Shown here: positions 1 through 64,000 of the stretch, piece after piece
Numbering within the stretch: position 1 is the stretch's first letter
Layout of the letters: every line of letters begins with the position of its first letter
Assembly: GCA_963555995.3 (NCBI GenBank)
Contig: OY821641.1
Location: 3,328,001 to 3,392,000, forward strand
Source of the DNA: Vicinamibacteria bacterium
GTDB lineage: Bacteria > Acidobacteriota > Vicinamibacteria > Marinacidobacterales > Marinacidobacteraceae
DNA length: 64,000 bases
Direction of reading: 5' to 3'
Notes under the pieces: model-generated
The model's input: the letters and a program-made list of their open reading frames with translations, nothing else
The model's database searches: none
What the model was told of the DNA's origin: nothing
Position numbers and translations under genes: made by a program

Positions 1-1105
1 CAGTCGGGGATTCGGCTCGCGGAAGTGCAGGTGCCGCGGGATCGTTCCCGCGCGCATCGAGAGCAGGACCTTCACGAGACCGGCCACTCCCGCTGCCGCC
101 TCCAGGTGGCCGATGTTCGTCTTCACCGAGCCGAGCAGCAACGGGCGCTCTGCCTCCCGCGCCGCCCCGTACGCGGCGGCCGCCGCCTGCACCTCGATGG
201 GATCTCCCAACTCGGTCCCCGTCCCGTGCGCTTCCAGATAGTCCACCGAGGCGGGCTCGATGCCCGCCCTTGACAGCGCCTCCGCGATCACGAGTTCCTG
301 CGCCGGGCCGTTCGGCACCGTCAACCCCGCACTCGCCCCGTCCTGATTCACCGCCGATCCCAGCAGCAGTCCGAGGATGCGGTCTCCCGCCGCCTCCGCG
401 TCCGCGACGCGCTTCAACACCATGACGCCACAGCCCTCTCCCCGGACATACCCATCCGCGGCCGCATCGAACGTCTTGCAGCGGCCGTCCGGCGAAAGGA
501 TTCCCGCCCCATCCAGCACTTCGTGGCCTCCGCCCAGCAGGATCGCATTCACTCCCCCAGCCAGCGCCAGATCGGCCTCCCGCCGCAACAGGCCGGCCAT
601 CGCCTGGTGCGCCGCCACCAGCGACGAGGAACACGCCGTATCAATCGCCATCGCCGGTCCCTGAAGGCCGAGCGTGAACGCCACCCGGCCGATCGCCGTC
701 GCGAAGCTCGTTCCGGTCACCGCGTGGAACGACGCCGCCCGCTCACCCAGGAGGTGCTGGTAGTCATTGGAACCGATCCCGACGTACACCCCCGTCCGAC
801 TACCCCGCAGGGTTTCGGGATCCAACCCAGCGTCCTCCAGTGCTTCCCAGCTCACTTCCAGAAGGAGACGCTGCTGCGGGTCCAGCACCTCCGCCTCCAC
901 AGGCGCGATCTGGAAGAACTCCGCGTCGAAACGATCCAGTCCCGGAAGGTACGCCCCGTACTGATCCGCGTCACCCGCACTGCTCAGCGCCCCACCCGGC
1001 CGGCCCCTGGTCACCGAATCCGTGCCGGCGGCGAGCTGCTTCCAGAAATCCACCGGACCGACGCCCCCGGGGAAACGGCACCCGATCCCGATCACCGCGA
1101 TCCGC
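1..1105 (-). other. PKS module B9: KS domain (module continues beyond the window)
   Basis: [25 protein letters not shown] (~630), YLEAHGTGT (~225), [12 protein letters not shown] (~105). Confidence 0.92.
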
Positions 1106-4100
1106 TCGTCTTCGGACCGGACCGCGGGAGCGCGCGCGGGCGCAACCGACACGGGCGCACCGAACGCCTCCGCGAGCCGTTCGGAGAGGCGCTCGATGGT
1201 CGGGTAGTCGAACGCCATCGTGGCGGGGGCCACGAACACCCCGGCGAGCTTGCGGTTCACGCGATTCCTCAACTCCATCGCCATCAACGAGTCCATTCCC
1301 AGATCGAAGAACCCAACGGTCGGATCCGGCGCCGCCGCCAACCGGAGCACGCGACGAACCTCCGTTTGGAGGAATCCCGCGAGCAGGGCCCGGCGCTCTT
1401 CGGCGGGCGCGCGTCGAATCCGCTCCACCAGGTTCCCGGCTGGCTCCGGCGCCTCGGCGCCCGACACCGGAACCAGCTCACGAACCAACGGTGGGGCCGG
1501 CGCTCCGGATACGAACCGCGCCCAGTCCACCAACGCGACAACGCCGCTCACCGTCTGCGCCTCGACGAGTTGTTCCAACGTCCGCATCCCCATCGCCGGC
1601 GACAGCCAGGTGATTCCCAGGTCCTGCATCAGCCATTCGACCTGTTCCTGCTGGCGTCCTCCCATCCCCGCCGCCGCCCAGGGTCCCCACGCCACCGCCT
1701 GCCCCGCGAGGCCCAGCGCCCGCCGGCGCCGCGCCAACTGATCCACAAACGCGTTCGCCGCCGCATAGTTGGTCTGGCCCGGGCTGCCCAGGACGCCCAC
1801 CAGGCTCGAATACAACACGAAGAGATCGAGGTCCAGATCCCGCGTCGCGCGGTGCAGCCGCCATCCACCCAGCGCCTTCGCCCCCAGAACCTCCTCGAAG
1901 CGTGACCAGCTCTGGTTCGGCAGCGCCGCATCCCGGAGTGCACCCGCGCAGTGAAAGACCCCGGCGAGCGGCGGCAGGCCCCCGGCCGGTCCCGAACGCG
2001 ATACGAGCCGCTCCACCTCTCCTTCCTCCGTGAGGTCTCCCCGCTCCACCCGGATCTCCACCCCGCGCGCTCCCCACTCCTCGATCCGCCGCTCGGCTTC
2101 GGCGCCCGGGGCGCCCCGCCCATGGAGCACCAGGGCCCCCGCATCGTGCTCCGCCAGCCAGCCCGCCGTCAGCAGGCCCAGGCCGCCCAGGCCGCCCGTC
2201 ACCAGATACGTCCGATCCGCACGAATCGGAACGGCTCCCGTCGCGCTCCCGGGCTCTTCATCGGGGTCCGTTCGAGCCGGCTCCGTCGCGCCACGCCACC
2301 GCACGAGCCGTGGCGCCCGCCGCACGCCCGCCCGATACGCGATCTCGACCTCCCGGTCCGGACCCAGCAACTCCTCGACGACATCCTCGACGGGCTGCTC
2401 CGGCGCCGCAACGCCTGGGTCCAGGTCCAGAAGGCGCACCCCCAGATCCGGTGCCTCCCGCGAGAGCGATCGCCCGAAACCCCAGAGCGCCGCTCCCGAC
2501 GGCTCCCCACCTTGCTCCTCCGCGAGCACCTGCCCCCCCCGCGTCACGAACCAGAGCCCGGCCGGCACGGCCACTCCCGATTCGGACACCCCCTGCGTGA
2601 GCGCCAGCGCGCTCGCTCCCGCCTTCTCCAGGTCCTCGGACAGCGTTGCCGTGTCCGCCTCGCCGCCCCGGCCGGTCAGTCCTCCGAGGTGCACCACCCC
2701 CCGAAACGGGACGTCCCGCGGAAGCTCCGCGAGCGCCTCCCGCCATGAATCCCGAGCTCGGGAAGCGATCCGCAGTCCCTCATAGCCCTCTCCGTCCGGC
2801 GCGGTTTCGCCCGCGAGGATCACACGCTCGCCCCGTCGCACCAGACCCCGCGCCAATGCCTCGCCGAACTCGAGTCCCCAGCCCTCGAGCGGCGCCGCCA
2901 GCAGCCACAACCCCGCCACCGGCACGCCGTCCGGATCCGACGCCACAGTCGGCCCGTCGGCGGCGCCTGGCAGGCGGGGGGCCTCCCGCCAGTCCAGTTC
3001 ATACAGCGGCTCGATCGCGTCCGAAACCGCAGCCTGCGGCGCCGCCGGCTCTACCCGGGACAGGGATCGGTCCCCCTCCACCCAGTACCGCTCCCGCTGG
3101 AACGGATACGTCGGCAGCGACACCCGGCGAGGCTTCTCCCCGGTGAACAGACCCCCGAACGAAACGTCGAGCCCCGCCTCGTACGCCCCCGCTACCGCCC
3201 GAACCCAGCTCTCGCTCCCGCCTCCCGCCGGAACCGACACCACCCGCAGACCCGCGTCCCCCGGCCATGCCGACGACGCCCGCTCGCCCAGCCCCTCTGA
3301 CGGGCCCACCTCCACCAGCAGGCCCACTTCCAGGTCCGACAGCGTCTCCAGCGCACGCTCGAAACGAACCTCCCCTCCCGCCTCCGAACCCCAGGCGCCG
3401 GCCTCCGGAACCCCTTCCTCCAGACGACCACTCGCGCCCCGCACCAGCGGCACCCCCGGCGGCGACGGCGCCCCCTCCCCACCGCGGCCCAGCGCCAGCC
3501 GCAGCCCGTCCTCCAGCTCCACCACCCCCGACGCGCACGCCGCCGCCAACTCCCCCGCACCGCAACCCCAGACCACCCCCGGAACCACCCCCACACTCTC
3601 CCACAGCGCCGTCAGCCCCGCCTGCAGCGCATACCGCGCCGCCGCCGCCAACCCCGCGTCCTCCGCCGCCCCCGGCCAAGCCTCCGGCGGCGGACACTCG
3701 TCCCCCAGCACCGCCGCGCAGCGGTCCACCACCTCGCGGAACGCCGGCTCGATTCCGTACAGCTCCCGCCCCAGACCCAACCACCCCCCGTCCGCCCCCG
3801 CGTAGAGGAACGCGACCTTCCCGGCCGACGACTCCCGACCCTCACCCCCCACCGCTACCTGCCGCAGCCCCGCGCGCAACGTGTCCTCGTCCCGGAACAC
3901 CACCCCCGCACGCCAATCGAAATGGCTCCGCCCGACCCCCGCCGTCCACGCCGCGTCCGCCAGCGGCGCGTCCTCTCCCAGCCACTCCCCGTAACGGCCC
4001 GCCAACTCCCGCAGCGCTCCCTCGTTTTTCCCCGACAGCGGCAGCAGTCGCCAGCCGCGCTGCGCGAGCGGTGCTGCTTCCTCCACCCCCACCGAACCTG

Positions 4101-63700: not shown

Positions 63701-64000
63701 TCCGGCCAACATCAACTGGTAGTCGCTGCCACACACTCCCCCATAGACCCCCGTGCGGCTCCCCCGGAGACTCCCCGGGGCCAGCCCCGCGTCCTCCAGA
63801 GCCGCCCAACTCACCTCCAGCAACAACCGTTGCTGCGGGTCCAGCAACTCCGCCTCCACCGGCGCGATCCGGAAGAACTCCGCATCGAAGCGGTCCAGCC
63901 CCTCCACGTACCCCCCGAACGAACGCGCGGCCTCCGTCTCCGCGTCCACGAACAACCCGTCCGGACGACCCTCGGTCACCGCATCCAGCCCCGAACGGAG
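51623..64000 (-). CDS. Modular type I PKS (gene A), 5'-truncated by the window; last two modules plus C-terminal docking domain
   Basis: ORF-track 4118-aa protein. Its 'start' at 63979 is an internal GTG inside a KS, since the frame continues [13 protein letters not shown] to the window edge. Motifs: DTACSSS x2, [36 protein letters not shown], TGGLGGxG x2, LGMDSL x2. TGA at 51625-51623. Confidence 0.97.
51642..51650 (-). promoter_or_regulatory. Putative ribosome-binding site of gene B (GAGCGAGGA), within the 3' end of gene A
   Basis: The minus strand reads GAGCGAGG-ATGACG-ATGGCG, placing GAGG 6 nt upstream of the ATG at 51636. Confidence 0.55.
51750..58690 (-). other. PKS module A2: KS-AT0-DH-cMT-ER-KR(His)-ACP
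   Basis: [26 protein letters not shown] remnant [34 protein letters not shown] and [41 protein letters not shown]. Confidence 0.92.
58750..64000 (-). other. PKS module A1: KS-AT(full length)-DH-KR-ACP, no MT or ER
   Basis: KS DTACSSS / EAHGAGT / [21 protein letters not shown] (Ser 62171-62173), [23 protein letters not shown] and [41 protein letters not shown]. Confidence 0.92.

Follow-up and report, generated by a model that had tools for sequence, protein, structure and literature searches.

The 64,000-nucleotide stretch analysed here (the window; G000:C1:3328001-3392000), from a 3.8-Mb, 70% GC assembly of a Vicinamibacteria bacterium (marker completeness 92.95%), forms the middle of a giant polyketide synthase (PKS) assembly line in which a complete acyltransferase (AT) site of Ser, Arg and His is missing from every one of the 17 elongation modules. 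The line is encoded by two adjoining minus-strand genes, A and B (106 kb; 19 ketosynthases (KSs)), which share a 20-nt overlap where gene A ends and gene B starts, and is a sup-derived PKS of cis architecture, that is, a multimodular derivative distinct from SupA itself. As no AT site is complete though relatives of the line keep theirs, it likely runs on externally loaded building blocks, and loading in trans by some donor is considered quite probable. Modules are numbered from the start of each gene, and the modules termed A1 and A2 in a preliminary description of the window are A8 and A9 here (Table 1).

AT decay is graded within the line. Among the 19 AT positions, A8 is of full length, A2 and A7 are of full length with Ser changed to Gly, 15 lack both the Ser and the small subdomain, and in A1 the AT is excised. 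The count of complete elongation sites is zero because A8 has lost its His, A2 and A7 carry Ser to Gly and the deleted copies lack Ser (missing in 16 of the 17); the canonical mechanism is thus excluded, which supports the earlier proposal that these modules cannot load themselves. The nine VWGCGAGE sites and single GHSAGE of the preliminary description were all recovered (GCGAGE at 56896, 49737, 43674, 36693, 30615, 23613, 16647, 9615 and 3567; GHSAGE at 62179), as was the shortening of the dead AT (AT0) of A9 relative to the A8 AT (717 vs 1023 nt from KVAFLY to LPTYPF), the deletion comprising the ~64-residue small subdomain, the HAFH motif and the following helix. Two of its readings were revised: an Arg is retained at or beside the malonate-binding position just before the deletion (ALGR/ATGR), and the A8 AT, thought to be intact, reads HAFQS, so that its catalytic His is Gln. 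The Gln codon is covered by contigs from four runs and three samples of one study with zero differing letters, and His is present in 201 of 201 homologous ATs having Ser and Arg (210 were scored at all three sites). The GCGAGE DNA pattern occurs mostly at scattered sites in 28 family genomes, and 9 of its 12 matches in G000 are AT0s.

An AT-derived domain persists in every module except A1, and the B2 AT0 region matches Pfam Acyl_transf_1. The distance from KS to the next domain forms a ladder, at 450-530 aa with a full AT, 341-375 aa with a deleted AT, 186 aa in A1 and 186-189 aa in three AT-less reference modules; the remnant is therefore larger than a trans-AT spacer, as first suggested. 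In an AlphaFold model of the B2 KS-AT0 (predicted local distance difference test score 88), the remnant is an intact alpha/beta large subdomain folded like that of KS-AT didomains, those of CurL and DEBS being the closest folds. The folded large subdomain is predicted to persist as a structural bridge from KS to dehydratase (DH); the docking role first suggested for the remnant found no support.

A8 is the only module in which GQGSQW, Ser, Arg and the small subdomain all persist; its AT is 81% identical to that of a probable orthologue with intact HAFH (P0216), and its His-to-Gln change takes a single base. In an AT tree that left out the deleted region and the catalytic motifs, the internal AT0s nest among elongation ATs, with a short branch for A8 (0.2) and far-diverged AT0 copies. 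That A8 still has Ser, Arg and its full fold argues that it was, or is, the loader, which counts against loading from outside the cluster; in the enacyloxin PKS, a few cis ATs serve AT-less modules, active ATs being kept in some modules. It is nonetheless unlikely that A8, despite its Gln, is one shared loader for all modules, as Gln occupies this position in 0 of the 201 ATs having Ser and Arg, HAFQ is also found in a Ser-less AT of congener G015, and the AT His is by the established mechanism the general base, as seen for SimG (bioRxiv 10.1101/2025.10.28.685194). The in-cluster AT previously called intact lacks its catalytic His. A8 was probably the last shared in-cluster loader and would be the most recent to lose its His. 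An A8 orthologue was looked for in a 95%-identical strain and not found.

A PF00698 scan of the whole assembly found complete ATs elsewhere in the genome, and these are FabD, SupA and SwfA only. The stand-alone AT gene first imagined to feed the line is absent from the flanks (~45 kb downstream and 35 kb upstream), and no dedicated trans-AT gene was found by the scan in the cluster or in the genome. Five relatives scanned likewise have a similar inventory, save one extra AT-like gene in G004, and the congener G014 has the same three kinds of complete AT. Loading of the giant line in trans by the complete AT of SupA (58 kb away) or of SwfA would draw on an AT that, in SupA, is intact and of the same family, with an ACP (acyl carrier protein) closely like the module ACPs; yet the SupA AT sits in a module that has an ACP and a hydrolase of its own, its private changes number only 3/66 in the small subdomain vs 4/298, and congeners have SupA without AT loss, so that this source is decidedly improbable. 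Non-canonical loading of malonyl, by the remnant through its GCGAGE Cys or by ACP self-malonylation, would fit the conservation of GCGAGE with synonymous variation in nine copies, the retained Arg and the reported self-acylation of the PipC PKS ACP at high concentration (PMC12828459). However, the Cys immediately precedes the nucleophile position, itself occupied by Gly, other dead AT copies have His, Ala, Gln or Tyr in place of that Cys, and the His and the small subdomain are gone; such loading is thus very improbable indeed.

There remains the housekeeping FabD, which would load malonyl onto the carrier domains in trans and is the lead donor because changes are unusually frequent in its small subdomain, the part of an AT that contacts the ACP. 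Private changes affect 20/301 sites of FabD vs 45/4,859 in 14 neighbouring genes (10 of the 45 in the adjacent fabG), and within FabD 12/67 sites of the small subdomain vs 8/234 elsewhere, including positions fixed as E/Q, G/A or R/K in 26 of 26 family members. Polarised by the sister allele P0218, the small subdomain takes 8 of 11 changes on this FabD branch and 1 of 7 on the sister's. Several observations weigh against FabD as the donor. Synonymous divergence is doubled over fabD (0.45 vs 0.21) and raised over the adjacent fabG, and an imported allele therefore explains much of the signal; the contrast between non-synonymous and synonymous changes lacks significance (p 0.16); a small-subdomain excess is also found in congener G006 (4/67 vs 0/234), whose elongation ATs are intact, and is absent from congener G015, which has partial AT loss; ACP charge, taken as a sign of adaptation to FabD, shows no shift, the module ACPs being no more acidic than those of a cis-AT relative; and the signal is that of one lineage, sought after the fact. 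Judged from these substitutions, FabD may be the main donor of malonyl to the carrier domains of the line, a proposal given a little less than even weight. As an observation on the locus, fabD plus fabG (G000:C1:932947-934720) resemble an imported allele, both synonymous and amino-acid divergence lying above those of the flanking genes.

Neither gene contains an internal stop over the 106 kb, and the frame of gene B, first described as open for >51 kb, is open for 17,214 codons within the window (19,619 aa in the genome). Had the A9/B1-B8 domains diverged neutrally, ~84 stops would be expected by a rough count; zero were seen. Pairwise omega (the ratio of non-synonymous to synonymous rates) among these modules is 0.35 for KS, 0.47 for AT0 and 0.38-0.59 for the other domains (seven domain types), compared with 0.32 for the intact ATs of the relative G018. 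Together with the missing stops, these ratios show long selection after AT death. A cruder variant count tempers this, giving ratios of 0.48-1.25, with AT0 at 0.82 and no constraint on AT0 shown. The absence of stops over 106 kb together with omega below 1 suggests a working line, and on this evidence the line is likely still working; malonyl loaded in trans by an AT external to the cluster would account for its activity. If instead A8 was the only loader of the line up to a recent loss of its His, the line would now be dead with stops not yet gathered. The cluster indeed has no complete AT and there is no dedicated trans AT; moreover, signals of purifying selection record only the past and may be compatible with death of the line after the A8 His loss, a change that cannot be dated from the three samples since they are identical over A8. 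Recent death is nevertheless improbable, given 106 kb without a lesion, the retention of the line by a small 3.8-Mb symbiont genome and the FabD changes on the same terminal branch.

The 19 KSs all fall in the sup clade with KS1/KS2 of SupA and the modules of relatives (FastTree, 86 rows; support 0.90), and none joins the AT-less references from L060/L063, in a small reference set without an approximately unbiased (AU) test; among Protein Data Bank matches for the KSs, cis KS-ATs ranked above trans-AT KSs. The line thus falls outside the canonical trans-AT family; if working, it works like a trans-AT line. In the same family, G018 has on one contig a line of three genes and 12 KSs whose loading KS is orthologous and in which all 10 elongation ATs and the loading AT are complete and only the terminal one is dead. 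Of 43 AT loci in five further relatives (fragmented assemblies), seven lack Ser, namely five terminal ones plus a loading and an internal one, both of G015. An orthologue of A1-A2 (P0010) has the loading AT excised and the adjoining module-2 AT intact, and an internal deleted AT0 occurs in P0007, from another organism. In AU tests (40 of 88 rows, quick tree), the internal deletions may share one origin (p 0.41) and the internal AT0s may group with the terminal AT0 of B10, a long branch (p 0.44), neither arrangement being rejected. One clade for all small-subdomain-deleted ATs was rejected (p-AU 1.4e-7). Scans found 22 loci in the genome collection, mostly SupA-like, with no second AT-dead giant line among them, and one locus in metagenome contigs. 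Two side observations concern line ends and AT loss elsewhere: the lines of G018 (L022), G012 (L033) and G007 (L034) end in KS-AT0-DH, the DH of G018 apparently without His, and that of G000 in KS0-AT0; and on a Ralstonia plasmid (L060), the KS of one AT-less module joins cis-AT KSs and the AT remnant of a second module is split, possibly a further case of AT loss.

The independent route to an AT-less PKS envisaged in the preliminary description is in line with KSs that stand apart from trans-AT references and with relatives that show the cis ancestral state. A transition from cis to trans AT that ran separately from the canonical trans-AT lineage, with relatives representing fully cis and partly converted states, is a tentative reading. 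The decay would have been stepwise, from loss of the Ser through deletion of the ACP-contacting small subdomain to excision of the whole AT in one module, and decayed copies would have spread via module duplication and gene conversion. A possible view, held just as cautiously, is that a bacterial modular PKS is completing its own cis-to-trans-AT transition with all steps preserved in one line (loss of His, loss of Ser, deletion of the small subdomain, excision of the AT down to a spacer of trans-AT size), and that changes in the ACP-binding subdomain of FabD have remodelled it to feed all 17 modules.

The modules have exact repeats of up to 4.5 kb in common. With contig depth as a rough measure of copy number, the depth ratio in run X2 was within 0.5 of the assembly k-mer multiplicity for 8 of 8 contig pieces, and in runs X1 and X4 repeated pieces were lower in depth than the assembly multiplicity predicts. 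The AT0 and KR0 (inactive ketoreductase) states are reproduced in proteins of another strain at 95% identity (P0002, P0215), and it is unlikely that the module repeats are an assembly artefact. In window 31000-39000, the reduced relative depth of repeated pieces (X1, X4) is a weak hint that module number may differ between host samples.

Outside the ATs, the KS, DH, ER and ACP motifs had been called intact. The Cys and first His are kept in 17/17 elongation KSs and the Ser in 18/18 ACPs; among the other domains, the ketoreductases (KRs) of B3 and B7 have lost their catalytic residues and the C-methyltransferase (MT) of B1 carries a His-to-Tyr change (Table 1). Gene B ends, beyond the window, in a KS0-AT0 didomain. 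By colinearity, the predicted product would be a lipid with a C36 backbone, up to nine methyl branches, approximately three ketones, two hydroxyls and three alkenes; the terminal KS0 would hand it to the free ACP and the hydrolase would release it. Several features of the KRs and KSs were recorded besides. In G000, His (NHAAAN) replaces the catalytic Tyr of the KR in 8 of the 10 modules with an MT, the remaining two being KR0, and Tyr is present in 6 of 6 MT-less ones, a pattern mostly matched by the KRs of G018 (exceptions b1 and b3). The A8 KS has HGAGT in place of HGTGT (window 63181-63161), with the catalytic His kept.

Table 1. Features of the assembly line and its surroundings (window-relative coordinates; ER, enoylreductase)
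Feature	Coordinates	Strand	Description
Gene A	98893-51623	-	15,756 aa, 9 KS; 3' part in window (51623..64000), bearing A8 and A9
Gene B	51642 to -7217	-	19,619 aa, 10 KS; 5' part in window (1..51642)
Free ACP	100764-101156		upstream of gene A
Hydrolase	99591-100451		upstream of gene A
RND transporter gene			upstream of gene A, outside window
Module A1			KS(Cys to Ser)-ACP, loading module, AT excised
Module A2			reductive set: KR
Module A3			no reductive domains
Module A4			DH-MT-ER-KR
Module A5			DH-KR
Module A6			DH-ER-KR
Module A7			DH-MT-ER-KR
Module A8	in window	-	KS-AT-DH-KR-ACP
Module A9	in window	-	KS-AT0-DH-MT-ER-KR-ACP
Module B1			DH-MT-KR
Module B2			full reductive set (DH-MT-ER-KR)
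Module B3			DH-MT-KR0
Modules B4-B6			full reductive set (DH-MT-ER-KR) each
Module B7			DH-MT-KR0
Module B8			KR
Module B9			DH-ER-KR
Module B10			terminal KS0-AT0
AT of A8	61424..62446	-	full length; GQGSQW, GHSAGE and Arg kept; His to Gln (HAFQS, codon CAG 61852-61850)
AT0 of A9	56429..57145	-	GCGAGE; small subdomain deleted
AT0 of B1	49270..49989	-	
AT0 of B2	43213..43926	-	predicted fold of KS-AT0: KS-AT without small subdomain
AT0 of B3	36232..36909	-	DNA identical to B6 AT0
AT0 of B4	30148..30867	-	97.5% identical to same AT0 of another strain (P0002)
AT0 of B5	23152..23841	-	
AT0 of B6	16186..16863	-	
AT0 of B7	9154..9867	-	
AT0 of B8	3100..3819	-	
MT of B1	47164..47898	-	NVLHAT to NVLYAT (His to Tyr); predicted inactive
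KR of B3	33019..33561	-	catalytic residues replaced (FSG..ANDAAAD); predicted KR0, giving ketone; same in another strain
KR of B7	5929..6471	-	catalytic residues replaced; predicted KR0

The genome also carries a mono-modular supA (C1:3252758-3262744) and a swf cluster; domain by domain, its SupA shares 86-98% identity with SupA from two records of acidobacterial metagenome-assembled genomes. These markers suggest an acidobacterial sponge symbiont. A scan of the region upstream of gene A for sigma-70 promoters found none. A phosphopantetheinyl transferase is present, as a single PF01648 match. That match lies near the swf locus (G000:C1:1340239-1347275), together with a third sup-type hydrolase and an RND pair. 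At the other end of the line, the genes of a myo-inositol-1-phosphate synthase and a 4Fe-4S protein (window-relative -9333 to -7240) converge on the end of gene B.

Among known systems, SupA of the sup (sponge symbiont ubiquitous) PKSs was reportedly introduced by Fieseler in 2007, and a giant sponge-symbiont PKS, SA1, is said to have been described by Schirmer and others in 2005, with ~25,500 aa, 14 modules and a multimethyl-branched fatty acid as predicted product. The present line would resemble SA1 in giant size, methylating reducing modules and sponge-symbiont type; if many inactive ATs were reported for SA1, part of the novelty falls. Both sup and swf are sponge-symbiont genes (PMC3908369, PMC9426513), with SupA described as small and mono-modular (PMC4245539) and the sup PKSs further treated in PMC9864124. 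The giant line shares with them the KS-AT-DH-MT-ER-KR-ACP module type, KSs of one clade, a terminal KS with a dead AT and adjoining genes for a free ACP and a hydrolase, and differs from the mono-modular SupA in its 19 KSs, its 106 kb and the disabling of every internal AT. As a dead AT, usually deleted, is general at the SupA C-terminus, the domain form itself is not new; what is new is that it extends to every internal module.

That FabD can load a PKS ACP in trans has been demonstrated for PipC of pseudotetraivprolide (PMC12828459), with no dedicated AT in cluster or genome, as here, where FabD is a candidate only; the PipC module keeps only an AT docking remnant, whereas the giant line has 17 modules and AT remnants of 230-330 aa. 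FabD-fed modules, like dead terminal sup ATs, are thus already known. For the hybrid cis/trans enacyloxin PKS, cis-type docking domains are described along with the definition of the cis and trans classes (PMC9113145). This PKS too has cis-type modules without working ATs, and differs by its active ATs in some modules, the giant line having none complete. Canonical trans-AT PKSs share the dependence on an external AT (the reference cluster L063 has a free fabD-like AT) and a spacer like the 186 aa of A1, and differ in KS phylogeny, in-module ER, the large remnants here and the lack of a cluster AT gene. In algal PKSs, AT displacement has been inferred, the order of AT loss and module duplication being given as unknown (PMC4661987), and in current models cis and trans lines evolve differently (PMC12184294). 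The literature searched yielded no account of a multimodular sup line whose ATs are all disabled, most subscription papers and supplements being outside its scope.

The origin of AT-less assembly lines is an open matter, and here an order can be read, with cis duplication first and then stepwise AT decay spread by gene conversion, for which G018 (intact) and G015 (partly converted) are natural controls. The line offers a direct test case for the properties that let an external AT work with cis-type modules and for whether deletion of the small subdomain helps, which is relevant to AT-null complementation in engineered PKSs. A further prediction is that the sup family, still orphan, makes a long methyl-branched keto-lipid not yet described. 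If loaded from outside, the line would be a rarely seen intermediate between self-loading and external loading.

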